A stretch of 64,000 nucleotides of DNA from Thermoplasmata archaeon. GTDB lineage: Archaea > Thermoplasmatota > Thermoplasmata > UBA10834. The notes beneath the pieces were generated by a model that had not been told where the DNA came from, made no database searches, and worked only from the letters and a program-made list of their open reading frames with translations. A program made the position numbers and the translations under genes. Positions 6,608 to 55,074 of the stretch are shown here, piece by piece. Positions within the stretch are counted from its first letter, which is position 1; the number at the start of each line of letters is the position of its first letter. The stretch covers positions 28,195 to 92,194 of the forward strand of contig JBFFML010000005.1 of the NCBI GenBank assembly GCA_041554135.1, read 5' to 3'.

Positions 6608-6707
6608 CAACGCGTGGATGGTTTGGTCTGGATATATCCGTTATGGTCGGGCACCGCACGATCCCGAAGCCCAATCATAATCTACCGGGAACTCAGTTCG
6701 TCCATTG

Positions 6708-7544
6708 ATGACTAAGACCTTGGTCACTCTGGCTCAGATCAACTGTCAGCTGCACGACAAGGAGGCGAACCTCCGCAGGATGCGCAAGGTACTCACAGCC
6801 TCGAAAGGAAGCATCGTCATATTCCCGGAACTGAATCTCACGGGGTACATGCCGAGGGATGACCTGTTCAAGCTTGCGGAGACTGAGAAGGGACCCACCA
6901 TACGCAAGGTCGTCTCGATCGCGAAGGAGACGCGCAAGGACGTCCTGTTCGGCATTCCCATGAAGGACGAGAAGGTCCACGGCCATATCTACAACTCTTG
7001 CCTGCTCGCCACCGGAGATGGCGAACTGTTCAGATACGACAAGATGTATCTTCCCACGTTCGGCCCATTCGAGGAACGGGTCTTCTTCGCCAGTGGGCGC
7101 AAGCCGGTCGTCGCGGATGGCATGCATGCGAGGATCGGCATGACCGTATGCTACGACATGTTCTTTCCAGAGCTGGTGAAGCTCGAGGCCCTGCGCGGGG
7201 CACAGATCATCGTGAACCTCTCCGCAGCCCCGACGACATCGAGACAGAGCTTCGAGCATGTGCTGCCCGCTCGCGCCGTCGAGAACGGCGTGTTCGTGGC
7301 CTATGTGAACATGGTCGGCGTCCACGGTAGTCTGGTGTTCAGCGGCGGCAGTGTCATCTTCAACCCGAAGGGCGAAGTCGTGTGCAGGGCGAGGAACCTC
7401 AGAGAGGACATCGTCGAGGCGGAGATCGATCTCGGGGACATCGCCATATCCCGGAGGTTCCGTCCTCTCGGCCGGGACGTTCGCCCAGAGGTGCTCGACG
7501 AGCTCTGTTCCGAACTGAAGTCGAACGACAGGGGGCCGTCCTGA
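6708..7544 (+). CDS. Carbon-nitrogen hydrolase (nitrilase superfamily), divergent from nadE
   Basis: FPELNLTGY (Glu), KMYLP (Lys) and the CYDMFFPE (Cys) catalytic-triad context. Confidence 0.75.
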   Translation: MTKTLVTLAQINCQLHDKEANLRRMRKVLTASKGSIVIFPELNLTGYMPRDDLFKLAETEKGPTIRKVVSIAKETRKDVLFGIPMKDEKVHGHIYNSCLLATGDGELFRYDKMYLPTFGPFEERVFFASGRKPVVADGMHARIGMTVCYDMFFPELVKLEALRGAQIIVNLSAAPTTSRQSFEHVLPARAVENGVFVAYVNMVGVHGSLVFSGGSVIFNPKGEVVCRARNLREDIVEAEIDLGDIAISRRFRPLGRDVRPEVLDELCSELKSNDRGPS

Positions 7545-13051: not shown

Positions 13052-13057
13052 CTTGGC

Positions 13058-14074
13058 TCACTCCTTCTTCTTGCGCTTCTCGGTCACCGTGCGTCTCAGC
13101 AGCGACTTCGGCAGCGTGAAGGCGTAGAAGGTCCCGAGCGGGTCCTTCACCTGCATCATCAATTCCATTATCTGCTCCTCACTTAACTTTGACTCCGAAT
13201 CCGTGATGTTCAGGAGCGAGGACAGGGCGCTCAGCATGCTCCCGCCGTGGTCCATGACGGCCTTGGTCGGGCCCATGCAGCCTCTGCACGGCATGTTCGC
13301 GTTAGGGCACATCGCGCCGCAGCCCGCCCTCGTCGCGGGCCCGATGCAGATGATCCCCTGGTCGAGCAGGCACTTCTTGGGGTCGGCCTTGATCTCATAC
13401 GACTGGTATATCTTGTCTATCCGCCGTCCCTTCTCCACGCGCTCGCGGGGACACTCGTCGCAGAGCGTCTTGTCGGACGCGATGACCGTGCCCTTGGGCG
13501 GCAGGTCGGCGCCCTCCGTGACGTGCTTGGCCACGGCGTCCACCGCCATGGCTATCAGGTTGACCGTCGGCGGGCAGCCAGGCATGAAGTAATCGACGTC
13601 CACGACCTCGTCCAGCGTCTTGACGCTGTCGTAGAACACCGGTAGCTCGAGCTCGCCCTCCGGCACCGTCGAGATCGGCTGCGGCGTGACGAAGTCGGGG
13701 TTGTCCGTGGAGGCGGTGTTCTTGTAGACGGTCTCGAAGACCTCCTTCCTGTTGGTCACGTTCGCCAGCCCAGGCGTCCCGCCGAAGCAGGCGCACGAGC
13801 CGAAGGCGATCATGATGACCGACTTCTCCCTCAGCACCTTCGCCACATGCTCGTTCTCGCTGTTCCTGATAGCGCCGTTGTAGAACGAGACGGTTATCGA
13901 CTTGTCCGGCATCGCCTCGATCTCATGGAGCTTGCCGTCGAAGCCTATGGGCCAGAACACGACCTCCGCTATGGCGTGCACGTCCAGTATCTTTGCGTCT
14001 ATGTCCAGCAGCGCGACGTCGCAGCCTCCGCAGCCCGCGCCCCAGTACTGTGCGATTTTGATCTTGTCTGCCAT
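13058..14074 (-). CDS. mvhG: F420-non-reducing hydrogenase small subunit MvhG
   Basis: Starts MADKIKIAQYWGAGCGGCDVA, preceded by GGAGGTGAG. No Tat signal. Distal FeS cysteines CPNANMPCRGC. The track ORF's N-terminal 133 aa are out-of-frame overlap with the upstream gene. Confidence 0.85.
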   Translation of the reverse strand: MADKIKIAQYWGAGCGGCDVALLDIDAKILDVHAIAEVVFWPIGFDGKLHEIEAMPDKSITVSFYNGAIRNSENEHVAKVLREKSVIMIAFGSCACFGGTPGLANVTNRKEVFETVYKNTASTDNPDFVTPQPISTVPEGELELPVFYDSVKTLDEVVDVDYFMPGCPPTVNLIAMAVDAVAKHVTEGADLPPKGTVIASDKTLCDECPRERVEKGRRIDKIYQSYEIKADPKKCLLDQGIICIGPATRAGCGAMCPNANMPCRGCMGPTKAVMDHGGSMLSALSSLLNITDSESKLSEEQIMELMMQVKDPLGTFYAFTLPKSLLRRTVTEKRKKKE

Positions 14075-14076
14075 GG

Positions 14077-14469
14077 TCAGCTCACCTCCTCTCCTGAAGA
14101 CTCGGCCCTCATCGGGACCGCCGAGTATTGCGGCGACAGGCCTTTCATGCCGACCTGCTCGATCATCCGCCACCGCTTCAGGGCTATTATGTGCCTCACT
14201 ATCTCCGGCTTCGGTATGCCCGTCAGGTCGTGGAGCTCGTGCACCGTCTTGGGCCCATCCTCCATCTGCAGTATGAGCGCGTTTCTCTCGAGCTCGACCG
14301 AGGCAGCCTTCTGCAGTATGAAGCTGTATCTCGCCTCCGTGATGACCTCTCCGAACACGTTCTCGCCCGTGGTGAGGGCGCCCTTCTTGCCGAGCAGCCA
14401 CCTCACCCTCTCGCCCTCGAGCGTCCTTAGGGCGGCCCTTATCTTGGCGTCCCTGGGAGACATGCTCAC
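14077..14469 (-). CDS. Small winged-helix-like protein coupled to mvhD/mvhG (uncharacterised)
   Basis: GPKTVHELHDLTGIPKPEIVRHIIALKRWRMIEQ resembles a wHTH. Homologous to the C-terminal half of 17965-18786. GTGA overlap with the mvhD stop (or ATG at 14463). Confidence 0.5.
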   Translation of the reverse strand: MSMSPRDAKIRAALRTLEGERVRWLLGKKGALTTGENVFGEVITEARYSFILQKAASVELERNALILQMEDGPKTVHELHDLTGIPKPEIVRHIIALKRWRMIEQVGMKGLSPQYSAVPMRAESSGEEVS

Positions 14470-14930
14470 TCACCCTCCCTCGCTATGGGCGACGGCCCCA
14501 GCTCCTCGATCGTGTCCGTGAACTCGACCATCGTCTTCTGGAACTTCTCCCCCTCGCCCGCGGATATCCACTCGAGCCTCAGCCTGCCAGGGTCGAACCC
14601 GAACTGCTGCAGCAGTATCTTCAGGAGGGCGATCCTCCTCCGCGTCCTGTAGTTGCCCCCTATGTAGTGGCAGTCCGCGGGATGGCATCCCGCCACGAGT
14701 ATGCCGTCGGCGCCCTTCTGGAAAGCCCTCAGGACGAACTCGGGGTCGACCCTCGCGGAGCACATCACCCGGATCACCCTGAAGTGCGGCGGCATCTGCA
14801 ACCGGCTGACGCCCGCGAGGTCCGCGCCTGCGTACGAGCACCAGTTGCAGCAGAACACGATTATCTTCGGCTCGAAGTCCCCGGCGTCAGTCTTCGCCTG
14901 CCCCTCCGCGTTGGGTGCCGCGCTGCTCAC
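14466..14930 (-). CDS. mvhD: MvhD ([2Fe-2S] hydrogenase-Hdr connector), copy 4
   Basis: [22 protein letters not shown] and GCHPADCHY motifs. GTG start in a GTGA overlap with the upstream stop. Confidence 0.9.
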   Translation of the reverse strand: MSSAAPNAEGQAKTDAGDFEPKIIVFCCNWCSYAGADLAGVSRLQMPPHFRVIRVMCSARVDPEFVLRAFQKGADGILVAGCHPADCHYIGGNYRTRRRIALLKILLQQFGFDPGRLRLEWISAGEGEKFQKTMVEFTDTIEELGPSPIAREGE

Positions 14931-17900
14931 TGCCTCACCTCCTGCTTCTCGGCGTCGTCCTCAAGCGCCGCGTCGATCATCGCGACTATCTGCTCGTCCC
15001 TGAAGCCCTTCTGCGTGAGCGCGCCGGACGGGCACGCCCCGACACACGCCCCGCAACCCTTGCACAGGCCCACGTTGACGTCGACGAGCTTCTTCGTCTC
15101 GTCCTTCTGGTCGACTATGATCTCGAGCGCCTTGTACTCGCATGTCGGCACGCATATGCCGCAGCCGTCGCAGAGCGTCTCGTCTAGGCTCGCGACGATG
15201 CCCTCCGCCTCGAGGGTCTTCTTCGAGAGGATGGTCATCGCCCGCGACACCGACGCCAGGCCCTGGCCGATGCACTCGTCCAGGAACTTCGGCCCGTGCG
15301 CCAGCCCGGCGAGGTATACGCCCTCCGTGGCGAAGTCCACCGGCCTCAGCTTCATGTGTGCCTCGAGGAAGAAGCCCTCCTTCGTCAGTGGCACCTTGAG
15401 CATGGGCGCGAGCGCGTCCGCGCCCTCGTACGGCCTCGTGCCGCTCGCGAGGACGAGGTAGTCGGGGGTGATCTCGATGTCCTTGCCCGTGTCCTCGTCC
15501 GTGACGGAGACCACGAGCCTGTCACCCTTCGCCTCGACCTTCGGCTTCACGTCGTCCTCGAACCTGACGAAGGTGACGCCCTTCTCGGCCGCGGTCTTGT
15601 AGTACTCCTCCCTGAAGCCGTAGGTCCTGATGTCCCTGTACAGGATGAAGACCTTCGCGTCCGGGTCCTTCTCCTTGATCTTTATCGCCGCCGTCATCGT
15701 ACCCGTGCAGCATACGCGGGAGCAGTTAGGATGCCCCTCCTCGCGCGAGCCGACGCACTGGATGAACACGTACGAATCGCCCTTGACCTCGCCTTTCTTG
15801 AGCTTCTCCTTGAACTCCAGCAAAGTCAGCACGTTCGGGTTCTCGCCGTAGAGATACTCTCCTTTCGGCTTGTACTCCTGGCCCCCTACCGCGACTATGA
15901 CCGTCCCGTGCTCGAACTTCTCGTCGTTCTCCAGCGTCGTGACGAAGTTGCCCACGTAACCCTCGATGTTCTTCACGCCCACGCCGGCGTGCACCGTGAT
16001 GTTCTCGTTCGACGCGACCTCCTTCGCCAACGATTCCGCGAACTCGAGCGGGTCCTCGCCGGACGGCAGGTAGTGCAGCCTCCTCAGGTTGCCTCCGAGC
16101 TCCTTCTCCTTCTCGACGAGGTGGACCTTGACGCCCTGCTTCGCCAGCTCGAGCGCGGCGACCATCCCGGTCGCCCCGCCGCCGACGACGAGCCCGGCCT
16201 GGTTCACGTCGATCATGAGGTTCTCCAGCGGCTCCAGCAACCTGGACTTCGCGACGGCCATGCGTACGAGGTCCTTCGCCTTCTTCGTCGCGGCGTCGGC
16301 CTCGTGCATGTGTATCCACGAGCACTGGTCGCGTATGTTCGCCATCTCGAACAGGTACGGGTTGAGCCCCGCCTCCTTGATAGTGTTCTGGAACAGCGGC
16401 TCGTGCGTCCTCGGCGTGCAGCTCGCGACGACCACGCGGTTCAGGTCGTGCTCCTTGATCATCTCCTTGATCTTCTCCTGCGTGTCCTGTGAGCAGGTGT
16501 AGAGGTTCTCCTCGGCGTAGACCACGTTCGGCAGCGTCCTCGCGTACTCGGCGACGGACGGCACCTTCACGACGCCGCCGATGTTGATGCCGCAGTGGCA
16601 CACGAACACGCCTATGCGCGGCTCCTGACCGGTGATGTCCATCTCGGCGGGGTACTCCTTCTTCGTCACGAGAGTGTCCCTCGCGGAAGCTATCTGCGTC
16701 GCCGCCTTCGCCGCGGCGCCGCTCGCCTCAGCCACAGTCATCGGTATGTCCTTGGGCGACGAGAACGCGCCGCTGACGAACACGCCAGGCCTCGAGGAGC
16801 TGACTGGGTTCAGCACGTCTGTCTTGCAGAAACCGTCCTTGTTCAGCTGGAACTTCATCACGCGGCTCAACGTCTCGGCGTCCTCCGGGGGCCTGAAACC
16901 CACGGCGAGGACGACCAGGCCGAACTCCTCCTCCTTGGGCTCGCCCTTCTCGACGTACTTCACCACGAGGTTCTTCGTCTCGGGGTCCTCGAACACGGAC
17001 GCGACCCTGGAACGGACGAACTCTATGCCGTACTCGTCCTGTGCCCTGTTGTAGTACTCGTCGAACTCCTTCCCGAACGCCCTCATGTCCATGAAGAATA
17101 TCTTGGGCTGTATGTCCCCGCCATGCTCCTTGGCGATGATCGCCTCCTTGATGGAGTACATGCAGCAGACGCCCGAGCAGTACTCGTTGCCCACCTGCTC
17201 GTCCCTCGAGCCCACGCACTGTATGAACGCTATCTTCGCGGGTATGTCGCCGTCCGACGGGCGCATGACGGTGCCGAAGTACGGCCCCGTCGCGCTCAGC
17301 ATCCTCTCGAACTCGATGCTCGTGACGACGTTCTTGTACACCCCGTATCCGTACTCCCCCTTCAGGCGAGCGTTGAACTCGTCGAAGCCGGGCGACAGGA
17401 TTATCGACCCGACCTTGATCTCGAGGACCTTCTCCTTCTGGTCGTAGTCCACCGCGTTCGCCTTGCACTCCTCCGAGCATATGCCGCAGCCTATGCACTT
17501 CTCCGGGTCTATGGAGTAGACGAGCGGCACGGCCTGCGGGTACCTGACGTATATCGCCTTCCTGACCTTGGTGCCCTCGTTGTACTCGTCGGTCACCTCG
17601 ATCGGGCACTTCTGTGCGCATGACCCGCAACCTGTGCACTTGGTCGGGTCCACCCTGAACGCCCTCTGCTTCACGGTCACTGTGAAGTTGCCCTCCTGCC
17701 CGTCGACTATCGCTATGTCCGCGTTGGTGATCAGGTCTATGTTGTGATGCCTGCCCGTGGCCACGAGCTTGGGCGCCATGATGCACATCGCACAATCGTT
17801 CGTCGGGAAGGTCTTGTCCAGCTGGGCCATCGTGCCGCCTATGCTGGGCTGCTTCTCCACCAGGTATACCTTGAATCCGGAATCGGCCAGGTCAAGGGCG

Positions 17901-17968
17901 GACTGGAGGCCCGATATGCCGCCACCCACGACCATGACCGCGCCGATCTTCTCGCCTGCCGCCATCAC
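14927..17968 (-). CDS. Double HdrA-like flavoprotein (1013 aa; two thioredoxin-reductase-like FAD modules in one chain)
   Basis: N-half: [28 protein letters not shown], inserted 2x CxxCxxCxxxC(P), CVGSRD. C-half: [13 protein letters not shown]-domain, VVGGGATGMVAALELA, CVGSRE, and a C-terminal 2x Cys4 ferredoxin. Confidence 0.85.
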   Translation of the reverse strand: MMAAGEKIGAVMVVGGGISGLQSALDLADSGFKVYLVEKQPSIGGTMAQLDKTFPTNDCAMCIMAPKLVATGRHHNIDLITNADIAIVDGQEGNFTVTVKQRAFRVDPTKCTGCGSCAQKCPIEVTDEYNEGTKVRKAIYVRYPQAVPLVYSIDPEKCIGCGICSEECKANAVDYDQKEKVLEIKVGSIILSPGFDEFNARLKGEYGYGVYKNVVTSIEFERMLSATGPYFGTVMRPSDGDIPAKIAFIQCVGSRDEQVGNEYCSGVCCMYSIKEAIIAKEHGGDIQPKIFFMDMRAFGKEFDEYYNRAQDEYGIEFVRSRVASVFEDPETKNLVVKYVEKGEPKEEEFGLVVLAVGFRPPEDAETLSRVMKFQLNKDGFCKTDVLNPVSSSRPGVFVSGAFSSPKDIPMTVAEASGAAAKAATQIASARDTLVTKKEYPAEMDITGQEPRIGVFVCHCGINIGGVVKVPSVAEYARTLPNVVYAEENLYTCSQDTQEKIKEMIKEHDLNRVVVASCTPRTHEPLFQNTIKEAGLNPYLFEMANIRDQCSWIHMHEADAATKKAKDLVRMAVAKSRLLEPLENLMIDVNQAGLVVGGGATGMVAALELAKQGVKVHLVEKEKELGGNLRRLHYLPSGEDPLEFAESLAKEVASNENITVHAGVGVKNIEGYVGNFVTTLENDEKFEHGTVIVAVGGQEYKPKGEYLYGENPNVLTLLEFKEKLKKGEVKGDSYVFIQCVGSREEGHPNCSRVCCTGTMTAAIKIKEKDPDAKVFILYRDIRTYGFREEYYKTAAEKGVTFVRFEDDVKPKVEAKGDRLVVSVTDEDTGKDIEITPDYLVLASGTRPYEGADALAPMLKVPLTKEGFFLEAHMKLRPVDFATEGVYLAGLAHGPKFLDECIGQGLASVSRAMTILSKKTLEAEGIVASLDETLCDGCGICVPTCEYKALEIIVDQKDETKKLVDVNVGLCKGCGACVGACPSGALTQKGFRDEQIVAMIDAALEDDAEKQEVRQ

Positions 17969-18786
17969 TGCTCACCTCCGATCTCGATCGTCCTGTAAAG
18001 GGGCGTGTACCCCTCCGGGTGCTCCATGGCTATCTTGCTGTTCTGCCTCAGGAGGACGATGTGCCTCAGGATCCTGTCCGTCGGCGTCTCCATGAGCATC
18101 CCGAGCTGCTTCACCGACATCGGCCTTATCCTGGCGAGCTCCAGGATCATGGCCCTCTCGAACTCCTCCTCCGTGGCCTCGTCGATGACGCCCTTGAGCT
18201 CCTCGGGGTCCAGCTTGTTGCCGTACGCGTTGCCCTTCTCGACGAGGTTCAGCTCCTTGCCGACGAGCGCCTTGAGCCTGAAGGACTGCGAGGCGTCCTC
18301 CGCGGACGCGAGCCTCGTCCTGACCATGTCGTCCTCGCGGGCCTTGCACGGCCCGAGCGCCTTGATCTGCTCGGTGAACTCCGTGACGACCTTGGAGAAC
18401 TTCTCACCCTCGGACGCGGAGACCCACTCCAGCCTCAGCCTCGCTGGGTCCACTCCCGCCTCCTCGAGGAGTTTCTTCATCAGGCCGACCCTCTTCTCGG
18501 TGTAGAAGTTGCCCGATATGTAGTGGCAGTCGCCTATGTGGCAGCCCCCGAGCAGCACGCCGTCGGCCCCGGCCTTGAACAGGTCGAGCACGAGGTGCGG
18601 GCTCACCCTGGTCGAGCACATCACCCTGACCGCGCGTATGTTCGTCGGGTACTGGTACCTGCTGACGCCGCACAGGTCCGCGCCTGCGTACGAGCACCAG
18701 TTGCAGAGGAAGCCGATTATCTTCGGCTCCCACGGGCCTTCGTGCTTCTTCTCGTGGTGTCCGCCATGGTGGTGCTTGTCCGTCAT
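17965..18786 (-). CDS. MvhD domain fused to a C-terminal winged-helix-like domain
   Basis: N-terminal [24 protein letters not shown] (MvhD). The C-terminal ~120 aa (..ILELARIRPMSVKQLGMLMETPTDRILRHIVLLRQ..) are homologous to 14077-14469. Confidence 0.75.
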   Translation of the reverse strand: MTDKHHHGGHHEKKHEGPWEPKIIGFLCNWCSYAGADLCGVSRYQYPTNIRAVRVMCSTRVSPHLVLDLFKAGADGVLLGGCHIGDCHYISGNFYTEKRVGLMKKLLEEAGVDPARLRLEWVSASEGEKFSKVVTEFTEQIKALGPCKAREDDMVRTRLASAEDASQSFRLKALVGKELNLVEKGNAYGNKLDPEELKGVIDEATEEEFERAMILELARIRPMSVKQLGMLMETPTDRILRHIVLLRQNSKIAMEHPEGYTPLYRTIEIGGEQ

Positions 18787-18789: not shown

Positions 18790-20658
18790 TCACACCTCCT
18801 CGTCAAGCGCGGCCTTCGCCTCCGCGAGCAGCTGCGCGTCGGTGTAGTTCGTCATGGTTATCGCTCCCTCGGGGCATGTGGCGCCGCAGCAGCCGCAGCC
18901 CTTGCAGGCGGCGACGATCACCTCGGCGATGCCCTCGTCGTTCTTCCTCAGGGCGCCGTACGGGCAGACCGTCACGCAGGTGCCGCAGCCAGTGCACTTC
19001 GTCTCGTCGATCACGGACGTGAGCGCCTCCGACTGGACGAACCCCTTGGCCATGGGTATGGCGGCTCGCGACGCCGCTGCGCCCCCTTGGATCGCGCAGT
19101 CCGTTATGTCCGCGGGTCCCCTGCAGGTGCCGGCGACGTACACGCCGTCGGTGGCGAAGTCCACCGGCCTGAGCTTGACGTGCGCCTCGAGGAAGAAGCC
19201 CTCCTGCCCCAGCGGGACCTTCAGCATCTTGGACAGGTCGCCCGCGTCCTGCTGCGCCACCAGCGGCGTGGACAGTATCACCATGTCCACCTGCATGGTC
19301 CTCTCCATCTTCAGCGTCTCGTGGAAGTACGTGATCATCAGCTGGTCGTCCTTCATGAACACCTTCGGGGCGTTGTCGGGCACGTACCGCACGAACTTGA
19401 CCCTCTTCTCCCTGGCCTTGTTGTAGGTCAGCTCGTGCTCGATGCCGTAGGCCATGACGTCCCTGTTGAAGACCGTGACCTCGATCTTGTCCGAAGGTCC
19501 GAGGCGCACCTCCTCCGCGCCCGCGTCCCCGCGGTCCCTGCCGCGCCGTCTCCGCCTCCGCTCCATGATCTCGTCAGGTGCCTTCTGCTCCACGGGCACG
19601 GTCTCGACCACCTCGCCCTCCTTCTCCGCGATACCGAGCATGTTCTCGTAGTTGTCCACGATGTTGATCGCGTTCTTGATGGCCACGTTGCAGCAGATCC
19701 TGGAGCAGTACGACAGCTGCTGCCCCCTCGAGCCCACGCACTGTATGAAAGCCACGTTCTTCAGCTTGGGCAGGGTCTTCTTCTTGCACAGTATCTCGAA
19801 CTCGGTCAGCGTCACGACGTTCGGGTACTGGTTGTATCCGTACAGCCCTTCAGGCACGAACTCGAGCGCCCCCGTCGCCACGATGATGGTCCCGACCTTG
19901 ACCTTCTGGGCCTCCTTGTCCTTCTCCGCGATCTCCACCTCGTAGTTGCCTATGAACCCCTCTGCGGACTTGACCGTCGAGTTGAGGTGGACGGTTATCT
20001 TGTCATTCGCCTGGACCTTGTCTATCATGGGTTTGATGGTCTCGATGGCGCTCTTCTGGGTGACGAACAGGTTGTTCAGGTTCCTGACGAACCCGCCGAG
20101 CTCGGACTCCCTCTCCACGAGGTGGACCGGGAAGCCCATGTCCGCTATCGACGCCGCGGCCGTCATCCCTGACACGCCGCCGCCGATGACCAGCGCCGTC
20201 GACTCCACGTCGACCTTGGCCTCCTCCTGAGGCTCCAGCAGCCGCGCCCGCGCGACGCCCATGCGCACGAGGTCCTTCGCCTTCTTCGTCGCCGCCTCCT
20301 TCTCCTTCATATGGACCCATGAGCAGTGTTCTCTGAGGTTCACGAAGGTGAAGAGGTATTTGTTAAGTCCAGCAGCCGCGCATGTGTTCTGGAACAGCGG
20401 GGCGTGCGTCCTCGGTGTGCAGCTCGCGACGATCACCCTGTTCAGCTTGTGCTCCTTTATCGCGTCCTTGATAGCCGTCAGCCCGTCGTCCGCGCACGTG
20501 TAGAGGTTGTCAGTCGCGTAGGCGACGTCCTTCAAGGTCTTAGCATAATCCGCAACGGACGGCACGTCCACGAACCCGCCTATGTTGCTGCCGCAGTGGC
20601 ACACGAACACGCCGATCCTCGTCTCCTCGTCCTTCCTCTCGTTCTCGCTCATCCGCAA
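18790..20658 (-). CDS. HdrA-like flavoprotein, 'C-half' type (N-terminal CHCG domain + FAD + C-terminal ferredoxin)
   Basis: [36 protein letters not shown] and C-terminal CTGCGTCVTVCP / CKGCGCCGATCP. The track start is TTG; ATG at 20652 is also possible. Confidence 0.85.
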   Translation of the reverse strand: MRMSENERKDEETRIGVFVCHCGSNIGGFVDVPSVADYAKTLKDVAYATDNLYTCADDGLTAIKDAIKEHKLNRVIVASCTPRTHAPLFQNTCAAAGLNKYLFTFVNLREHCSWVHMKEKEAATKKAKDLVRMGVARARLLEPQEEAKVDVESTALVIGGGVSGMTAAASIADMGFPVHLVERESELGGFVRNLNNLFVTQKSAIETIKPMIDKVQANDKITVHLNSTVKSAEGFIGNYEVEIAEKDKEAQKVKVGTIIVATGALEFVPEGLYGYNQYPNVVTLTEFEILCKKKTLPKLKNVAFIQCVGSRGQQLSYCSRICCNVAIKNAINIVDNYENMLGIAEKEGEVVETVPVEQKAPDEIMERRRRRRGRDRGDAGAEEVRLGPSDKIEVTVFNRDVMAYGIEHELTYNKAREKRVKFVRYVPDNAPKVFMKDDQLMITYFHETLKMERTMQVDMVILSTPLVAQQDAGDLSKMLKVPLGQEGFFLEAHVKLRPVDFATDGVYVAGTCRGPADITDCAIQGGAAASRAAIPMAKGFVQSEALTSVIDETKCTGCGTCVTVCPYGALRKNDEGIAEVIVAACKGCGCCGATCPEGAITMTNYTDAQLLAEAKAALDEEV

Positions 20659-21957
20659 TCACGCCCCTCCTGACTGGACGAGCGCCTCGACGGCCTTCGC
20701 CGCCGCGCTCGATCCCTGCGCGACCGATTCCGGTATGTCCGCGGGGCCTGCCGCGTAGCCCGCGAGATATATGCCTGGGACGACTGTCCTGCACGGGTCC
20801 AGCACACGGTCCGCCGCCTCGAGGAAGCCGAACTCGTCGGCCTTGATGCCGAGCATCTTGGCGACCTCCAAGGTCTCCTTCCTCGGCACGAGGGTCGTCG
20901 CCAGGACGACCATGTCGAACTCCTCGGACTGCTGCTTGCCCCCAACGTCGTACACTACGACGGGGTTCTGGTTGTCCGGGTTCTGCTGCACCGTCGCGTC
21001 GGAGTTGACGTACCTCACGCCGTAGTCGCGCTTGGCCCGTTCGACGTACTCGAAGAAGCCCTTCGCGCAGGCGCGCATGTCCTTGTAGAATATGACCGAC
21101 TCGATGTCATCGTAGTGCTCCCTGGCCAGCATGGCCTCCTTGGTCGAGTGCATGCAGCACACGGCGCAGCAGTACGGGTGCCCGACCTGCGGGTTCCTCG
21201 AGCCGACGCACTGGATGAACGCCATCTTCTTCGGACGCTCCTCGTCCGACCTCCTCTTTATGTGCCCATGGGTCGGCCCCGCGGCGTTTATCATCCGCTC
21301 GTACTCCATCGCGGTGAAGACGTTCGGATACTTGCCGTAGCCGTACTCGCTCGCGGATGTGGGGTCCCAGACATCGTAGCCCGTCGCGACGACTATCGCC
21401 CCGACCTCTATCTCGAGCATCTGGTCCTTCATCTCGTAGTCGATCGCCTCGCGGGCGCACACCTTCTTGCAGTTCCCGCACTTGTCCTTCGTGAGCTTGA
21501 TGCAGTTCTCCTTGTCGATCGTCATGACCCTGGGGACCGCCTGCATGAACGGCACGTAGATGGCCTTCCTGTTCTTCAGCCCCATCTCGAACTCGTCAGG
21601 GACCTTCACGGGGCACTTCTCGAGGCACTCGCCGCAGCCAGTGCACTTGTTCTCATCGACGTACCGCGCCTTCTTGAGAACCTTCACCTTGAACTCGCCA
21701 GCCTTCCCCTCGATTCCAACGACCTCCGAATACGTGATGACGTTCGTGTTCGGATGGCCGAAGCAATCCGCCATCTTGGGCGCGAGAATACATATCGAAC
21801 AGTCGTTCGTCGGGAAGGTCTTGTCCAGCTGTGCCATCCTGCCTCCTATGCTCGGAGACTTCTCGACCAGATGGACAATGATCCCCTTGTCCGCGAGGTC
21901 CAGAGCGGCCTGTATGCCCGCGACCCCGCCTCCAATCACCATTACTGACTTCTCCAT
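20659..21957 (-). CDS. HdrA-like flavoprotein, 'N-half' type (FAD + inserted ferredoxin; no CHCG domain, no C-terminal ferredoxin)
   Basis: [48 protein letters not shown] and CVGSRN. Its stop abuts the next gene. Confidence 0.85.
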   Translation of the reverse strand: MEKSVMVIGGGVAGIQAALDLADKGIIVHLVEKSPSIGGRMAQLDKTFPTNDCSICILAPKMADCFGHPNTNVITYSEVVGIEGKAGEFKVKVLKKARYVDENKCTGCGECLEKCPVKVPDEFEMGLKNRKAIYVPFMQAVPRVMTIDKENCIKLTKDKCGNCKKVCAREAIDYEMKDQMLEIEVGAIVVATGYDVWDPTSASEYGYGKYPNVFTAMEYERMINAAGPTHGHIKRRSDEERPKKMAFIQCVGSRNPQVGHPYCCAVCCMHSTKEAMLAREHYDDIESVIFYKDMRACAKGFFEYVERAKRDYGVRYVNSDATVQQNPDNQNPVVVYDVGGKQQSEEFDMVVLATTLVPRKETLEVAKMLGIKADEFGFLEAADRVLDPCRTVVPGIYLAGYAAGPADIPESVAQGSSAAAKAVEALVQSGGA

Positions 21958-22165: not shown

Positions 22166-22588
22166 TCAGGTCACGGCCTTGCCCTTCTTCAGCACCTGCT
22201 TGACGTCCTTGTCCTTCTTGATCTCGGTCACCTTGACCTTGAACGGCACCTTCTTCCTGGCCTGCAGCACCTCGCTCGAGAACCTCTGGCAGTTGGGGTA
22301 TGTGCACGGCGAGCACTTCTTGTCCTTGCACGCCAGCTCGATCAGCACGAGCCTGTCGCGTGTGTCGTCGGGCTTAACCACCGGCTTCTTGACCTCGAAC
22401 ATCTTGGTCATCTTGGTCTCGAAGGGCACCTTCTTGGGCTTCATCTCCCTGACGAACCTCTGGCAGTTAGGGTACGTGCACGGCGAGCACTTCTGGTCCT
22501 TGCATGACAGCTCGATCAGCAGGAACCTCTGGTCGGCGTCGTCCTTCTTCTTCTTTTTCTCCTCGCTATCCACTTTCTTCGGTGACAT
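22166..22588 (-). CDS. Lys-rich mini-protein with two tandem Cys4 repeats (uncharacterised)
   Basis: Two ~58-aa repeats, each (F/L)(L/V)LIEL(S/A)CKD(Q/K)KCSPCTYPNCQRF...KKVPF. It lies 21 nt downstream of the MvhD-HdrCB fusion on the same strand. ATG start. Confidence 0.55.
   Translation of the reverse strand: MSPKKVDSEEKKKKKDDADQRFLLIELSCKDQKCSPCTYPNCQRFVREMKPKKVPFETKMTKMFEVKKPVVKPDDTRDRLVLIELACKDKKCSPCTYPNCQRFSSEVLQARKKVPFKVKVTEIKKDKDVKQVLKKGKAVT
22280..22521. repeat. Intragenic direct repeat: two 68-nt copies (22280-22347 and 22454-22521), period 174 nt
   Basis: By-eye alignment shows roughly 90 percent identity between the copies, while the flanking codons have diverged. Confidence 0.8.
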
Positions 22589-22609: not shown

Positions 22610-24208
22610 CTACTCCAATGACTCTGCAATCGCCACGCTGATGTCCTTTATGGGTATGTCTACCTGCTCCTTCGGCACGCCCTCAGTCTTGTTGTCCCTG
22701 GCGCAAGCGAGGTGTATCAGGCATTTGTAGCAGCCGGTGACCAGGCACTCCGCCCCCGTCCTCTTCGCCTCTCTCAGCCTGTCGAGCTGCAGCCTCCGCG
22801 AGATCTCGTCGCATGTCGCCCAGGCGCTCACGCCGCAGCAGAGCGCCTTGTCCCTCGTGTTCTCCATCTCGACGATCTCCGTGCCGTCAGCCGCCTTGAG
22901 CGCGTCCCTGGGCTGGTCGTATATTCCGAGGTGCCTGCCCAGCCGGCAGGAATCCTGGAACGTCAGCTTCCTCGCGTTCGGCTTGAACTTGACCTTGCCC
23001 TCCTTTATCAGGTCGTCGACGTACTCCGATATGTGCACCATCTCGAAGTCCAGGTCGCCCATGAGGTCCTGGTAGTCCATGTCGAAGGTCCTCAGGCACT
23101 CGGGGCATGAGAAGACCACCTTCTTCGCGCCGGAGTCCTTGATCATGTCGATGTTCTTCTTCATGAGCTTCTGGAGGCCGAGCTCGTCCCCCGTCCAGTT
23201 GAGGTCGTGTCCGCAGCAGACCTCGTCGTTCCTGACGACGGGCGTGACGCCGGCCTTGTTCATTATCCTCACGACCGACCTCGGGATCTCCGTCAGTTCA
23301 AGGTCCCTGTCGCTGAGCATGTTGTCGAAGTACGATACGCACCCCGTGAAGTACAGCACCTCGCCCTTCTCGGCCACCTTCAGGTCCGGGGTGACCCAGC
23401 CGAGCCTGTCCTGCTTGAAATCCCCGTGCGCCTGTATCCTCATGAGGGCGTGCATCTGGCCCCCTTGGCTGCAAACGGCCTCGTTGTCCATCTTCGACGC
23501 CTCGACGCGCAGGCCCCTGATGAAGCCCGAGTAGTCCACCTTGTAAGGGCACATCGAGTTGCACTGCTCGCACGTGATGCATGTCCAGATGTCCCTGTTC
23601 GTGGCGAACGTTTCCGCCTGGCCCTCCGTAGCCTTGAGGACGATGGTCCTCGGGGCGAAGTCGGTGTTGTACTTAGCCACCGGGCACACCGTCGTGCACT
23701 TGCCGCACTCGACGCAGTCGAACGCGCCGGTGTCCTCTATGAGCTGGTCTACCTTGTCCTTCAGCTTCGATCGGTCGTACGGCAGCCTCGGTATCTTGGG
23801 CATGGGGTTCGGCCCGAGCCCGCGTATCTGCTCGGTGAACTCCTTCATCGTGGCCGCGAACTTCTGGCCTTCCGAGGCGGATATCCATTCGAGGCGCATC
23901 CTCTCCTGGCCTATGCCCACGATGTCGAGGAGCTCCTTCGTCATGTTCATCCGCTTCTCCGCCTCGACGTTGCCTGATATGTAGTGGCAGTCGCCTATGT
24001 GGCACCCAGCGACGAGGACGCCGTCGGCTCCGAGCTCGAACGCTCGGAGCACGAAGGTGGGCTCGATCCTCCCCGAGCACATCACCCGTATCACCCTCGC
24101 GTTGGGCGGATACTGCATGCGCCCCACGCCCGCGAGGTCCGCGCCCGCGTACGAGCACCAGTTGCAGCAGAACGCGACTATGTGTGGTTCGAATCTCGGC
24201 TCGGTCAT
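22610..24208 (-). CDS. Triple fusion MvhD + HdrC-like (2x[4Fe-4S]) + HdrB-like (2x CCG domain)
   Basis: [24 protein letters not shown], then [12 protein letters not shown] / [12 protein letters not shown], then FTGC..VCCGH..SCPEC and DSC..LCCGV..TGCYKC. ATG at 24208 sits in an ATGA overlap with the upstream stop. The track's N-terminal 125 aa are an out-of-frame artefact. Confidence 0.85.
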
Positions 24209-27200
24209 GTCCCCGCCTCCTGCTTCTCCTCGTCCCTCGCGAGCGCCGCCTCGATCATCGTCATTATCTGGTCTGTCCTGAAGTGCTTCGGGCGGATCGC
24301 CCTTGTGCAGCACTCGACCGCGCACGAGCCGCATCCCTTGCAGAGCGCCTCGTAGATGCGCGACTTGAATACGCCAGGGGAAACCTCCTCGAGTCTCGGG
24401 GCGCCGTACTCGCACAGCTCCTCGCACCTGCCGCAGCCGACGCACTTGTCCTCGTCGACCACGCTGACGACGCCCTCGGCCTCTATGGACGGCTTGGACA
24501 GGACGGTGTTGACCCTGGCCGCCGCGGCGAGCGCCTGGGATATGCTCTCGTCGATCAGTCTCGGCGAGTGCGCCAACCCGCATAGGAACACGCCATCCGT
24601 GGCGAAGTCCACTGGCCTGAGCTTCATGTGCGCCTCGAGGAAGTACCCCTCCTTGTTCTGCGGCACCTTCAGCAGCTGCGCCAGCTCCTTGTTGTCAGGG
24701 TTCGGGTGCACCGCGGCGTTGAGCACGACATATGTGGGCCTGATCGTGATGGTCTCCTCGATGAACTGCTCGTCGACTTCGACCACGAGGTCGTCGCCGT
24801 CGGCCCGCACGCTCGGCGGCGATGATGGGTCGTATCGCAGGAAGATAACTCCCTGCTTCGCCGCCTCGTTGTAGTTGTCCTCCGCGAAACCGTATGTGCG
24901 TATGTCTCTGAACAGGATGTAGACGCTCGTCCCGGGATGCTCCTTCTTGATCCTCAAGGCGTTGGCCATCGCCGTCGAGCAGCATATCCTCGAGCAGTTC
25001 GGGTGCTCATCGTCCCTCGAGCCCACGCACTGTATGATCACCACGCTCTTCGCGTCCAGCTTACCGGTCGCGATCATTTCGCCGAGGTCGGTCTGCCTGA
25101 TCACGCGCGGGTGCTCCCCGTAAAGGTACTCCTTTGGCTCGTACTCGATCCCGCCGGAGGCGACGACGATTGCTCCGTGCCTTATCTCCTCGCCGCTCCT
25201 CAGCCTGGTCTCGAAGTTGCCGATGTAGCCCTTTATCTCCTCGACGGAGTCCTCGAGGTGCACCTTGATCTTATCGTGATCGTGGATGTCTTTCTTCAGC
25301 GCGGCCAGGGTCTCCTGCGGGTCGATCCCCGCGAGGGTGTGGTATATCCTGCGCAGATGCCCACCGAGCTCCCTCTCCTTCTCGACGATATGTACCTCGA
25401 ACCCGGCCTTCGCGATCTCCAGCGCCGCCGTCATGCCGCTCAGGCCCCCGCCTATCACGAGCGCGACCGGCGTGACGGGTATCTTCGGCTGGGGCAGCGC
25501 CTCCAGCCGGGCGGCCTTCGCAACGGCCATGCGCACGAGGTCCTTGGCCTTCTCCGTGGCCGCCTCGGGCTCGTTGCGGTGGACCCACGAGCACTGGTCG
25601 CGTATGTTCGCCATGTCGAAGAGGTACTTGTTCAGGCCGGCCTCCCGGACGGTGTTCTGGAACAGCGGCTCGTGCGTCCTCGGCGTGCAGCTCGCGACGA
25701 CCACGCGGTTAAGGTCGTGTTCCTTGATCATGTCCCTTATCTTCTTCTGCGTGTCCTGGGAGCAAGTGTACAGGTTCTGCTCGGCGTATACGACGCCTGG
25801 AAGCTTGGACGCGTACTCCATGACCTCGGGTACGTCCACGACCGAGCCGATGTTGATGCCGCAGTGGCACACGAACACGCCTATGCGCGGCTCCTGGCCC
25901 GTGGCGTCCCTCTCCTCGGGGTACTCCTTCGCGGTCACGAGCGTCCCCCTCTCATCGGAGAGCAACGCGGCCGCCTTGCCCGCGGCCCCGCTCGCCTGGG
26001 CGACCGAGTCCGGGATGTCCTTCGGGCCAGAGAACGCCCCGCAGACGTAGATCCCTGGCACCGAAGTATCCACAGGAGCGAGCTCGTCGGTCTCGCAGAA
26101 GCCGTAGGCGTTGGCTTTCACGCCCAGCGTCTTCGCGAGCGCGCGGGCTGACTCGGGCGGCGTCGCGCCCGCCGACAGGACGACTATGTCGAACTGCTCC
26201 TCCTTTATGTCCGCCCCGTCTATGAAGCCCAGGATGAGCGAGCCCGTGTCCTCGTCCTGCTGGACCTTTGATATGCGGTTGTTCCTGAACACCCTGACGC
26301 CGTACTCCGTCTCCGCGCGGTGGAGGTACTCCTCGAACTCCTTGCCGAACGCGCGCGTGTCCATGAAGAATATCGTCGTCTTCAACCCGGGCACGTGCTC
26401 CTGCGCTATGACCGCCTGCTTGAGGGCGGCCATGCAACAGTACGACGAGCAATAGGTGTTGGGCGTCTGGGCGTCCCTGGAGCCGACGCATTGTATGAAC
26501 GCCACCTTCTGGGGCACGTCCCCGTCGGAAGGCCTGATGACATGTCCCTCCGTGGGGCCGGACGCGCTCAGCATCCTCTCGAACTCGATGTTGCTTACGA
26601 CGTTGGGGAACACCCCGTGGCCGTACATGGCCTTCCTCGAGACGTCGTAGACGTCGTATCCAGGCGCGAGTATGATCGCGCCCACCTCGATAGTCTCCTC
26701 TATGTCGGGCTCCATCGAGTACTTTATCGCGTCCGCTTCGCAGAACTTCTCACAAATGCCGCAGCCTATGCACAGTCCCCTGTCGATCGTGTACACGAGC
26801 GGGACCGCCTGCGGGAACGGGACGTATATCGCCTTCGCGGGCGCGAGGTCTCGGTCGAAGGCGCTCGTCCCCTCGATCGGGCAATGCTCGGCGCAGACGC
26901 CGCAGCCCGTGCACCTGTCCTCCAAGATGTACCTCGAGTGCCTGGTTATCGTGACATTGAACCGTCCGGCCTGTCCCTCGACCTTCTTCAGCTCGGCGTT
27001 CGTGAGCATATTGATGTTCTCGTGCCTGCCGGTGGCGACTAGCTTGGGCGAGAGGATGCACATCGAGCAGTCGTTCGTCGGGAAGGTCTTGTCCAGCTGG
27101 GCCATCGTGCCGCCGATGCTGGGCGTGCCCTCCAGGAGATATACCTTGTATCCGGAATCGGCGAGGTCCAATGCGGCCTGCATGCCCGCGGGCCCCCCGC

Positions 27201-27240
27201 CGACGATTAGCACCGCGCCCACTTTGCCGTTCTCAGCCAT
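24205..27240 (-). CDS. Double HdrA-like flavoprotein (1011 aa), paralogue of 14927-17968
   Basis: Same half-domain order: [16 protein letters not shown] + [12 protein letters not shown] + inserted ferredoxin, then [12 protein letters not shown] + [16 protein letters not shown] + C-terminal [11 protein letters not shown] / [11 protein letters not shown]. Confidence 0.85.
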
Positions 27241-27241: not shown

Positions 27242-27691
27242 CTACGCGCCCCCTTCGGAGATCGGCCCGAGCTTCTCCAACTCGGAGACCATTTGCCTGA
27301 TCACTTCCGCGAACTTCTGTCCCTCGGACCCCGCGATCCACTCCACCCTGAACCGCTGCGGCTCTATGCCGGCCTCCTCTAGGAACTCGGAGAGGAACTC
27401 CCCTCTCAACGCCGTCTTCTCGTTCCCGTTGATGTAGTGGCAGTCGGATGGGTGGCATCCGGCGATGATCACGCCGTCGGCGCCCAGGGCGAACGCCTTC
27501 AGGACGAAGGCTGGGTCGACCCTCCCCGAGCACATGACCCTGACTATCTTCACGTTCGTGGGGTACTGCAGCCTGGTCGTGCCCGCGAGGTCCGCGCCTG
27601 CGTACGAGCACCAGTTGCAGCAGAACGCCACGATCCTTGGCTCATATGTCTCCTCTGTCTCCTGAGCGACCGCTTCCCCCTGCAGGCTCAC
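27242..27691 (-). CDS. mvhD: MvhD, copy 1 (follows hdrB)
   Basis: [22 protein letters not shown] and GCHPSDCHY. GTG at 27691 in a GTGA overlap with the hdrB stop, with AAGGGGGG upstream. The long track ORF extension is rejected. Confidence 0.85.
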   Translation of the reverse strand: MSLQGEAVAQETEETYEPRIVAFCCNWCSYAGADLAGTTRLQYPTNVKIVRVMCSGRVDPAFVLKAFALGADGVIIAGCHPSDCHYINGNEKTALRGEFLSEFLEEAGIEPQRFRVEWIAGSEGQKFAEVIRQMVSELEKLGPISEGGA

Positions 27692-28605
27692 ACCCCCCTT
27701 AGCTTCCTGAGGAAGGAGTGCGCCGACACGTGATGCGTGTCGAACCCGAGCGAGATGGGGTCGATGCCCATCGACAGCGCCTGGAACTGGGATATGTGCA
27801 TCACCGGGATGCCGTCCTTCGTGAACGACTTCTGGGCGTTGTCGAACTGCAGGAGACAGAATGGGCAGCCGGTGACTATGCAGTCCGCCTCGGCCGCAGC
27901 GATGTTCCTGCATTTGTCCTCGGTGAGCGAGTTGGCGAGCTCGACCACGTGCGACCTCACGCCACCTCCCGCGCCGCAGCAGTCCAGCTTGTCCTCGTAA
28001 TCGACGCTCGTCGCGCCGCAGGCCTCTATGATCTCGTCGATGTGGACGGGGTCGTTGGGGTCGTCGATGGTCTGGTTCTCCGTCGGCCTGAGGTAATGGC
28101 AACCATAGTGGACGGCCGCGCGTATGTTCTTTAGCGGCCTCTTCGTGCGCTCCCGTATCGCGTCGAGGCCTATGTCGCTCGTCATCATCTCGACGTAGTG
28201 ACGGACCTTCACGGGCCCCATTATGCGCCTTCTGCCCTCCGTCCTGCGCGGTATCCCCGTGTACTTCTTCCCTATCTGGGACAGCATACGGTTCACCTTC
28301 CCCAGGCTCTTGGGGTCCTCCAGGTACTCCGTCGCCTTGAGCAGGGATGTGAGGCATCCGTTGCACACGGTCAGTATCTCCCGCCGCTCGGGCTGGGCCA
28401 GCGTGAGGTTCCTGGCGGCGAGCACGAGCCACGTGTTCTTGTCCGATGAGTAGAATATGCCTGGTACCGGGCAGCAGGAAAATTCCGGGATGTCGATGAC
28501 GTCGAGGTCGAACCCGTCCTTCCCGCATACCCAACGCACGGCGTACTCGACGCCCGGGTATCTGTTTGGTATTATGCAACCGAAGAAGTAGGCGTAGCTG
28601 GTCAA
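27688..28605 (-). CDS. hdrB: Heterodisulfide reductase subunit B
   Basis: Two C..CC(P/G)..CxxC repeats (FGC..SCCPVPG..CNGC and YGC..DCCGAGGG..GCPFC). TTG start in a TTGA overlap with hdrC. Confidence 0.9.
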   Translation of the reverse strand: MTSYAYFFGCIIPNRYPGVEYAVRWVCGKDGFDLDVIDIPEFSCCPVPGIFYSSDKNTWLVLAARNLTLAQPERREILTVCNGCLTSLLKATEYLEDPKSLGKVNRMLSQIGKKYTGIPRRTEGRRRIMGPVKVRHYVEMMTSDIGLDAIRERTKRPLKNIRAAVHYGCHYLRPTENQTIDDPNDPVHIDEIIEACGATSVDYEDKLDCCGAGGGVRSHVVELANSLTEDKCRNIAAAEADCIVTGCPFCLLQFDNAQKSFTKDGIPVMHISQFQALSMGIDPISLGFDTHHVSAHSFLRKLRGV

Positions 28606-29186
28606 GCCTTCACCTCCTCCTCTATGCCTATGAGCTTGTCGTAGCCTACCGCGTGAACGAGGACGTTTATCTCCCTTATCACGCGCGCGTAGTCCTTTCC
28701 CCGAGACGGGACGTCATCGAGCTCCAGCTCCTTCCGTATCTTCTCGATCTCGGGATCGGGCTTGACGCTCTGGCCGTACTTCACCAGGTTGGTCGCGGCG
28801 ACCTTGATGAACGGCGGTATCACGCCCTCCCTGATGGCGATGTGCCTCAGGGCGATCATCACCTCGGCCGGGTTGATGTCAGCGGGGCAGTGCTCGTAGC
28901 ACCTGTAGCATGTCGCGCAGACCCAGCGCGTGCCCAGCGTGAACTTCTTCAGCCCGAACTGGCAGAACTTGATTATGCTCCTGGTCTTGTAGTCGATCTT
29001 CAGGCTTATGGGACAGACGCCCGTGCAGTTGCCGCATTGCAGGCACGTCATGACGTCCTTCCCGCCGTACTTGACTATCTCCTTCGCGAAACCGGGCTCC
29101 AGCTGCGACTCGTCTATGACCTTGTCCTCCACGAGTTTCTCGCTCAGGCCGCTGAGGAATGTCTTCTCGACCTCTCCCATCGTCAC
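28602..29186 (-). CDS. hdrC: Heterodisulfide reductase subunit C
   Basis: CLQCGNCTGVCP and CATCYRCYEHCP ferredoxin motifs. GTG 29186 (GTGA overlap) or ATG 29180 after GGAGGTG. Confidence 0.9.
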   Translation of the reverse strand: MTMGEVEKTFLSGLSEKLVEDKVIDESQLEPGFAKEIVKYGGKDVMTCLQCGNCTGVCPISLKIDYKTRSIIKFCQFGLKKFTLGTRWVCATCYRCYEHCPADINPAEVMIALRHIAIREGVIPPFIKVAATNLVKYGQSVKPDPEIEKIRKELELDDVPSRGKDYARVIREINVLVHAVGYDKLIGIEEEVKA

Positions 29187-51728: not shown

Positions 51729-51915
51729 TAGTATAACTGTGATGAGAGAGTTCGTGGCACTCTTTAGAATGAACTTGGTCGTGCGATTCGTATCTCTCCC
51801 CCCTTTGTCTCTCTGTTATAACCGATGTCAGCCTTTCAGATGTCTATTCTGCCTCCGTAGTCCTTATAGTGAAATGACGGAAAGGGTTTCAGATGTCACT
51901 AGCCTCGGCCAGCGC

Positions 51916-54621: not shown

Positions 54622-55074
54622 CAACTGACAATCCCCCTGCCGCTTCTGACATCTCATACGGAAGCGAAGCGGTTGAGCCCGTAATGGCAATAATCCGCTA
54701 AAATGGTACGGATGATTGCTGAGGAGTCTGGCAAGGGCATAACTACGATATTCGACATCGCAGTACGATATCAGTGGAACGAGGAGCGCGGGTTTCTGCC
54801 TCAGCCGGGCTAGCATCTCTGTGATTCAGGAAGATAAATGGAATCTCATCCCATGCTGGGACGGGCGCTTTCTTGTCACTCGTCGGTCATTCTGCCATTG
54901 GCGCGTACAGAAATGGCATCTCTTTGTCTTTGGATATCCAGGAGATCAGCGATCCCGCGTTTGGAGAAGTGGTATCTTAGGAATATGGATATCCGTCTTC
55001 CACTTCTTCGCGAACGACTACTCACAAGAGATGATCGGTCGAATGGTCTGCTTTGAACGGTCTTCGGTGTTTGC

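Follow-up and report, generated by a model that had tools for sequence, protein, structure and literature searches.

The subject of this analysis is a gene in which an MvhD domain and an HdrD-like CCG protein are joined in a single chain, located in a 64,000-nucleotide stretch of DNA (hereafter the window) from a Thermoplasmata archaeon (contig JBFFML010000005.1, positions 28,195 to 92,194). The minus-strand open reading frame (ORF) 22610..24208 comprises 533 codons (532 amino acids (aa) and the stop). Its ATG (24208-24206) overlaps the TGA (24207-24205) of a 1011-aa ORF (24205..27240) in the sequence ATGA, and a GGAGG motif lies 8 nt 5' of the ATG. A preliminary description of this DNA had reported both the single 532-aa ORF with three parts and the overlap of its ATG with the stop of a double HdrA, and we see the same: every motif that it quoted is present in the translation, and the overlap is as described. 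A mechanical ORF listing gives a longer frame from an ATG at 24583 (657 aa); we place the start at 24208 because all homologues begin at the position of MTEPRFEP. The gene, its parts and its partner are:

22610..24208, minus strand: MvhD::HdrD-like fusion gene, 532 aa, predicted soluble, pI 5.5, 28 Cys
23813..24181, minus strand: MvhD/FlpD domain, putative [2Fe-2S] adaptor (aa 10-132; Pfam PF02662, 5odc_D, Foldseek, invariant Cys)
23720..23812, minus strand: linker (aa 133-163; alignment and AlphaFold2 model)
23534..23719, minus strand: HdrC-like 2x[4Fe-4S] ferredoxin domain (aa 164-225; Pfam Fer4_17/Fer4_8, conservation)
23096..23350, minus strand: first CCG motif, C290, C331-C332, C368, C371 (aa about 287-371; Pfam CCG)
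22709..22963, minus strand: second CCG motif, C421, C457-C458, C493, C496 (aa 416-500; best stretch of Pfam CCG)
24205..27240, minus strand: double ("type II", BamE-like) HdrA, 1011 aa, whose stop overlaps the fusion start codon

The MvhD domain carries the motif [15 protein letters not shown] at aa 13-27 and GCHIGDCHY at 68-76, and matches Pfam FlpD (PF02662) along the entire profile (1-123/123) with 188.7 bits (E 4e-56; curated cutoff 22.3). Behind the linker the chain has the HdrD-type layout, with two CxxCxxCxxxCP ferredoxin motifs, [12 protein letters not shown] (165-176) and [12 protein letters not shown] (210-221), followed by two complete CCG motifs of the form C...CCG...CxxC, namely FTGC / VCCGH / SCPEC (287-371) and DSC / LCCGV / TGCYKC (419-496). 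Fer4_17/Fer4_8 match at E about 1e-9 and the two CCG repeats at 87.8 bits (E 5e-25); judged by these scores, the domain assignments lie far beyond what chance would be expected to give. Alignments of 20 and 72 members show full or nearly full conservation of every ligand Cys in the MvhD, ferredoxin and CCG motifs: C165/168/171/175 and C210/213/216/220 of the ferredoxin motifs are invariant in both, and C15, C18, C44, C69 and C74 of the MvhD domain are invariant in the 72-sequence alignment. The linker varies in sequence and length at about residues 134-150, and is conserved at 151-164 (LIEDTGAFD), where it runs into the ferredoxin fold; it includes a conserved segment, [12 protein letters not shown], common to all fused homologues, and its C-terminal end is the conserved segment [10 protein letters not shown]. 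No transmembrane segment is predicted in the fusion (maximum 19-residue Kyte-Doolittle mean 1.27).

The 1011-aa partner aligns over residues 10-424 with the TrxR core and inserted ferredoxin domain of solved HdrA, over residues 442-602 with the HdrA N-terminal domain and over residues 862-1002 with the C-terminal ferredoxin domain. In manual and pairwise alignment its first TrxR domain keeps the Lys (CCMAALKQA) and the upstream Glu of bifurcating HdrA; the second has Ala/Gly at the Lys/Glu positions (CCSTAMANA) and lacks the inserted ferredoxin domain. The Lys of this motif stabilises the bifurcating flavin, and in BamE the flavin adenine dinucleotide (FAD) that bifurcates is found at Lys280 and the non-bifurcating one at Gln768 (preprint 10.64898/2026.04.10.717634). 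As far as sequence can tell, the layout of the 1011-aa HdrA matches that of BamE, with one bifurcating-type half and one without Lys/Glu; according to a recent survey, type II HdrA retains these residues in both halves. Tandem ("type II") HdrA have been catalogued in methane-metabolising archaea and anaerobic methanotrophic archaea (ANME), and HdrD-like genes sometimes occur in such clusters (PMC12054007, PMC9012536). The MvhD domain of the fusion is thus associated with an HdrA-type flavoprotein by the start/stop overlap and by an adjacency that is conserved.

A homologue search covering 5.8 billion proteins returned >120 cluster representatives with 56-91% identity and 98-100% coverage, all of which have PF02662, Fer4 and PF02754 in one chain, and the fused form is present in two closed genomes (CP070732 and CP070767). 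In an exhaustive HMMER scan of 1.84 billion representatives clustered at 50% identity, about 20 representatives align with the query all the way from MvhD to CCG, the lowest identity being 33%. Sources are named for ten representatives and include Methanobacteriota/Thermoplasmata, Candidatus Alkanophagales, Planctomycetota and Desulfobacteraceae/Deltaproteobacteria, the last with a fused cluster of 96 members. The fusion is not rare, and recurs in many uncultured archaea and bacteria. The preliminary description had allowed that a frameshift or missing stop might hide separate mvhD, hdrC and hdrB genes; with the same fused frame across all these clusters we take the fusion to be real and an artefact to be very unlikely. 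It had also allowed that the architecture might prove common and functionally assigned in databases: common it is, but the entries for the fused architecture bear generic names ("hydrogenase iron-sulfur subunit", "heterodisulfide reductase subunit D") and no assigned function. Our literature search found no paper treating the MvhD-HdrD architecture as such and a single passing mention, of a lowly expressed "fused hdrD/mvhD" in Ca. Methanoglobus hypatiae for which no function was proposed (ISME J 2024, PMC10945360); by its description this case has the same two components as the fusion in the window, although it comes from another lineage (Archaeoglobi). A Methanoperedens genome note, considered as a further case of fused mvhD/hdrD, actually concerns hdrA-mvhD fusions. 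The family is thus best read as widespread, generically annotated and already noticed in passing, and as falling within bifurcating modules of the HdrA/MvhD/HdrD (BamDEF) type.

The MvhD domain matches 5odc_D at E 6e-56 in sequence searches and is 64% identical to the solved MvhD of M. thermolithotrophicus. Across solved MvhD and ElpC chains the identity is 57-64% and the Foldseek template modelling score (TM, normalised to the target) 0.86-0.91, and the three other MvhD paralogues in the window are 58-63% identical. This argues for a canonical MvhD domain, which would have kept its usual contacts given its 64% identity to the M. thermolithotrophicus protein. The C-terminal 380 aa score 27 bits against the HdrB equivalog TIGR03288 (cutoff 345) and 47 bits against the HdrC equivalog TIGR03290 (cutoff 160); the window's separate hdrB and hdrC (27688-29186), of which hdrB sits 3.5 kb upstream of the fusion, reach 320 and 118 bits, near but below the same cutoffs. 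The best models for this part are TfrB (127 bits) and LdhH (123 bits), both under cutoff, and its best solved relative is EtfD of M. smegmatis (9OJN; sequence E 1e-28, Foldseek E 5e-15, TM 0.56 normalised to the query), with fusion residues 206-508 aligning with residues 408-724 of the EtfD chain, that is, within the HdrD-like part only. We rejected canonical HdrC+HdrB for the C-terminal part because its scores fall far under both equivalog cutoffs. The label that these scores make correct is 'HdrD-like CCG protein'; of the MvhD + HdrC + HdrB fusion announced in the preliminary description, the three-part domain reading holds and the identification with HdrC and HdrB does not.

Gene order was surveyed by scanning GTDB species genomes, with subsequent ORF and tblastn checks of individual loci (L numbers). 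The window shares its fusion of MvhD with the HdrD-like protein with L001-L011, L026 and L059. In every Thermoplasmata locus examined (L001-L011, L059) an HdrA lies directly before the fusion, and the ATGA overlap is repeated in L002. On a Desulfobacteraceae-type contig (L083) a 1136-aa HdrA with Fer4_20 is followed by the fusion, and in Alkanophagales (L084), where HdrA again comes first, the fusion overlaps its upstream gene by 4 nt. Separate ORFs for a big hdrA, mvhD and hdrD are found in WOR-3 L016, L012, Chloroflexota L017 and Methanomicrobia L042. In metagenome-assembled genomes (MAGs) labelled Thermoplasmata or Methanomassiliicoccales (L013, L014, L015, L035) mvhD and the hdrD-like gene stand in different frames and overlap at stop and start; in L014 the mvhD TGA at 6418 overlaps the GTG start of the hdrD-like gene at 6404, a frame change inside the linker being what separates the fused from the split state of the same syntenic genes. 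A third arrangement occurs in Anaerolineales (L022, L023), where the MvhD motif lies at the C-terminus of a 1149-1166-aa HdrA and the hdrD-like gene follows. A neighbour-joining tree built from the HdrD-like parts of 86 representatives mixes fused with unfused proteins and joins several of them as close fused/unfused sisters; it rests on BLOSUM distances without support values, with fusion status taken from the query-coverage columns of the exhaustive HMMER search, and only the close sister pairs, not the deep branching, are relied on. The simplest reading of these sequences is repeated merger and undoing of the merger of neighbouring mvhD and hdrD genes that encode parts of one complex. By Rosetta-stone logic, two proteins encoded separately in some genomes and as one chain in others tend to work together. 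The fused/split pattern therefore indicates that MvhD, this HdrD-like clade and HdrA are parts of one complex, and that joining the C-terminus of MvhD to the N-terminus of the HdrD-like protein can be harmless.

Among described systems, BamE/BamF/BamD of the Geobacter metallireducens class II benzoyl-CoA reductase (cryo-electron microscopy preprint 10.64898/2026.04.10.717634) comes closest. Both systems have a fused HdrA dimer, about 1000 aa long, in which one TrxR domain is of the bifurcating and the other of the non-bifurcating type (as in BamE, the Lys is present in half 1 of the window HdrA and replaced in half 2), an MvhD-type [2Fe-2S] adaptor (BamF) and an HdrD-like exit subunit with two cubanes and CCG clusters for the high-potential electron (BamD). 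Whereas BamF and BamD are separate proteins, their counterparts in the window form one chain; the distal cluster of BamD is degenerate whereas both CCG motifs of the fusion are intact; and the donor in the window is probably a [NiFe]-hydrogenase. Membership in BamBCDEFGHI was rejected because the linked partners bamBC (tungsten AOR-type) and bamGHI (NuoEFG-like) are missing among the window ORFs scanned, a few short ORFs being unscanned. With the methanogen complexes MvhAGD-HdrABC, FdhAB-MvhD-HdrABC and ElpABC-HdrABC (5ODC, 7BKB, 8RVU) the module shares an HdrA partner and ferredoxin-type plus CCG-type exit clusters. It differs from them in that a single HdrD-like unit replaces HdrC + HdrB, in that HdrA is a tandem pseudo-dimer and in that MvhD, which belongs to the mobile input arm in the solved complexes, is covalently tied to the exit subunit. 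Methanosarcina HdrA2 ('type Ia' HdrA with a C-terminal MvhD; PMC5296606, PMC12054007) likewise has MvhD fused to a neighbouring Hdr subunit, and the HdrA2 model matches the MvhD domain of the fusion with 206 bits at model positions 647-773; the partner of MvhD is the flavin subunit in HdrA2 and the CCG subunit in the fusion, and both variants occur among relatives of the locus. In HdrD (of HdrDE) and EtfD (9OJN), too, a 2x[4Fe-4S] ferredoxin domain and two CCG motifs follow one another in one chain, but the fusion has an MvhD domain at its N-terminus and neither a membrane anchor nor a cytochrome b partner. Membership in HdrDE was rejected: a Pfam-type scan of the neighbouring ORFs revealed no hdrE beside the fusion, all neighbours being soluble Hdr/Mvh proteins, and the fusion has no hydrophobic segment. 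Membership in EtfD/electron-transferring flavoprotein (ETF):quinone oxidoreductase was rejected because only the HdrD-like part matches, a membrane segment is missing and no etfAB occurs in the ORFs scanned.

We regard it as probable, though by no means assured, that the fusion unites in a single chain two subunits of one soluble module for flavin-based electron bifurcation of the HdrA type, their partner being the translationally coupled double HdrA. The cofactors, electron path, donor and acceptor of such a module we infer by analogy with the solved Mvh/Fdh/Elp-Hdr complexes and the BamDEF module. Electrons from a donor module would enter the double HdrA at its C-terminal ferredoxin domain, move on to the [2Fe-2S] cluster held by the MvhD domain and so reach the bifurcating FAD of the first TrxR domain. 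From this FAD the high-potential branch would lead to the TrxR cluster, the two HdrC-like cubanes and the two non-cubane clusters at the CCG motifs, and the low-potential branch to ferredoxin by way of the inserted ferredoxin domain. The nearest named relative of the locus is a UBA10834 MAG (82-86% identity), and the UBA10834 order has been reported to be non-methanogenic (preprint 10.1101/2020.03.09.984617), which makes CoM-S-S-CoB a doubtful substrate. The CCG clusters would reduce a different disulfide, if the host is indeed a non-methanogenic member of the Thermoplasmata, or else a protein partner.

The published structures indicate how the fusion could fit such a module. An MvhD-type [2Fe-2S] cluster lies about 25-28 Å from the bifurcating FAD and the HdrC entry cluster adjoins the TrxR cluster of the same FAD (PMC12350162), beside which the BamD entry cluster is likewise found (preprint 10.64898/2026.04.10.717634); in the Elp-Hdr and Hdr-Vhu-Fwd structures the MvhD-type cluster rides a mobile arm to about 25 Å from the FAD (PMC12350162). 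Because both clusters are placed there, the two halves of the fusion would be neighbours around one flavin; some 20-30 residues are plausibly enough to bridge them, and tethering therefore calls for no rewiring. The preliminary description had proposed a wiring different from the textbook complex, with the [2Fe-2S] connector on the disulfide-reducing instead of the flavin subunit. This proposal finds no support in syntenic relatives that carry the same genes unfused or MvhD fused to HdrA, nor in an MvhD domain so close to a solved one and clusters that flank the same FAD. Most likely the fusion would stabilise stoichiometry and assembly, creating no new path.

Around the fusion, some 20 kb of the minus strand form a gene cluster, also conserved in relatives, with the following order:

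hypFCAD-type maturation genes, then hdrA(700)-hdrC-hdrB-mvhD, then double hdrA(1011) + fusion, then a 140-aa Cys protein
after the 140-aa Cys protein, split double hdrA (432 + 622 aa) + extended mvhD (273 aa)
after the extended mvhD, double hdrA(1013)-mvhD-mvhG-mvhA

In total it holds four HdrA modules, four MvhD domains, two CCG units and one hydrogenase. The 'compact two-gene Hdr' of the preliminary description is a fair name for the translational unit of double HdrA and fusion, which may nevertheless be one module of a larger assembly. The most likely donor in this cluster is the MvhAG [NiFe]-hydrogenase (11537-14473), but naming it is a guess, because these genes have their own adjacent mvhD (14466-14930) and because one hydrogenase faces four HdrA modules and four MvhD domains.

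That imbalance is one of several observations that weigh against a single bifurcating module of fusion and double HdrA. In L006-L010 and L026 the gene upstream of the fusion matches only the second half of the double HdrA. The HdrD-like part is, by its scores, nearer to EtfD, TfrB and LdhH than to HdrB. An AlphaFold2 model of the single chain (72-sequence alignment) has a mean predicted local distance difference test (pLDDT) of 85 and a predicted TM (pTM) of 0.88, with an ordered linker (pLDDT 79-91, helix 146-160). Because this pTM is high for a 532-residue chain, MvhD is confidently placed in the model, which suggests a domain docked on the HdrD-like body and not loosely tethered. A docked MvhD would sit awkwardly with mobile-arm behaviour, and could leave room for direct transfer from MvhD to the HdrD-like part.

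These points bear on the alternatives to different degrees. In the first, the complex is the same and its exit chemistry another: the CCG end would be a docking and electron-transfer site for a protein carrier and not a disulfide reductase. We consider this unlikely overall, with a minor but real chance of being right. In its favour, the C-terminal part has its closest match, in sequence as in fold, in M. smegmatis EtfD, which takes electrons from ETF, just as BamD hands electrons to ETF (preprint 10.64898/2026.04.10.717634), and it suits a host that, going by the identity to the UBA10834 locus, is probably a non-methanogenic Thermoplasmata relative without CoM-S-S-CoB. It also offers a part to a neighbour of the fusion:

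22166..22588, minus strand: basic 140-aa two-repeat protein, pI 9.7, directly downstream of the fusion

Each of the two repeats of about 58 aa in this protein has an invariant C-x4-C-x2-C-x4-C (8 invariant Cys in all), and PF04060 ('putative Fe-S cluster') matches 19/20 members of the family below threshold, the window copy with 18.7 bits (cutoff 23). Only about 212 homologues were found, the named ones being 'hypothetical protein' from Thermoplasmata or Thermoplasmatota, and recurs downstream of the fused or split pair in seven loci (L001, L003, L004, L005, L011, L013, L014). From these sequences it may be a dedicated small 2x Fe-S carrier for the module, and could be the carrier that a docking site would serve. 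Weighed against this, the protein is absent from L002, L059 and L006-L010 and its PF04060 match in the window is sub-threshold; no etfAB was found among the window ORFs scanned; and both CCG motifs keep all ten Cys, where BamD homologues mostly lose the distal cluster.

A second alternative, which we think quite improbable, is a direct wire from the MvhD [2Fe-2S] to the HdrC-like cubanes of the same chain, by which the fusion would be a non-bifurcating adaptor-reductase; one such path would run from MvhAG through MvhD::HdrD to the acceptor, with HdrA bypassed or served in parallel. The linker of the model is ordered and its whole-chain pTM is hard to reach unless MvhD is confidently placed against the HdrD-like body, but pTM is silent on cluster distances. 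An MvhAG hydrogenase is encoded in the same cluster, as such a path would need, but its genes come with an mvhD of their own, and translational coupling and conserved synteny bind the fusion to HdrA and not to MvhAG. Orthologous systems have MvhD free or fused to HdrA, and a short circuit past the flavin would waste a co-translated bifurcation module. Were MvhD rigidly docked, as the model could be taken to mean, its [2Fe-2S], instead of riding a swinging input arm, might also act as a fixed relay from the exit of one HdrA module to the entry of another in a serial multi-bifurcation assembly; to this we give a slender chance, and if true the cluster would encode a serially coupled assembly with the fusion as inter-module connector. 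Finally, that a base missing in the linker merged separate mvhD and hdrD genes during assembly has next to no credibility: a small linker indel would indeed switch between the states seen in L013, L014, L015 and L035, but the fused frame recurs in independent clusters, including one 91% identical and both closed genomes, and the linker translates into the conserved segment common to all fused homologues.

HdrA-based electron bifurcation is central to anaerobic energy conservation, and the current account of its gating invokes MvhD on a mobile arm. With MvhD tied to a static exit subunit, the fusion amounts to a natural tether experiment on the mobile-arm model, and its fused, split and HdrA-fused relatives form a comparative set for how much arm movement the mechanism needs. 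The same set helps to place MvhD relative to the HdrC-type subunit in tandem-HdrA complexes, and the family marks a clade of HdrD-like proteins that have HdrA and MvhD as working partners in non-methanogens. Among database entries it is unremarkable, being frequent in MAGs and generically annotated.

The other HdrA, MvhD and hydrogenase genes of the cluster have peculiarities of their own. A second tandem HdrA of 1013 aa is encoded at 14927-17968 (minus strand). A further 'double HdrA' is split into two abutting minus-strand genes, one of 432 aa (20659-21957) that corresponds to the N half with its inserted ferredoxin, and one of 622 aa (18790-20658) that has a TTG start and consists of N-terminal domain, TrxR and C-terminal ferredoxin; the Lys is present in the 622-aa half (CCNVAIKNA). 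The N-half gene of L002 and L059 encodes 901 aa, with an inserted Fer4_20 (GltD-type) region. The MvhD at 17965-18786 (minus strand; 273 aa in total) has a C-terminal extension of about 130 aa and is conserved after the split HdrA in relatives; L001 has another extended MvhD (334 aa, 5886-6890) with a weak HTH_20 match. These extended proteins recall BamF, an MvhD adaptor with an extra winged-helix part. The MvhG-like small subunit at 13058-14473 (minus strand) is unusually long at 471 aa, with Oxidored_q6 beginning only at residue 148, and in L002 its N-terminal part is a separate 127-aa gene; the 504-aa [NiFe] large subunit (11537-13051, minus strand) follows it.

Elsewhere in the window there are two genes of the MttB methyltransferase superfamily on the plus strand (40208-41629 and 46301-47767), three clostripain-type (C11) peptidases near the MttB genes (916-2412, 4399-5613 and 47800-49146) and an oligopeptide ATP-binding cassette (ABC) transporter (49813-54816) that includes a 966-aa binding protein decorated with PKD/CarboxypepD_reg domains. 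Taken together, these genes hint at a lifestyle that uses peptides and methylated amines.

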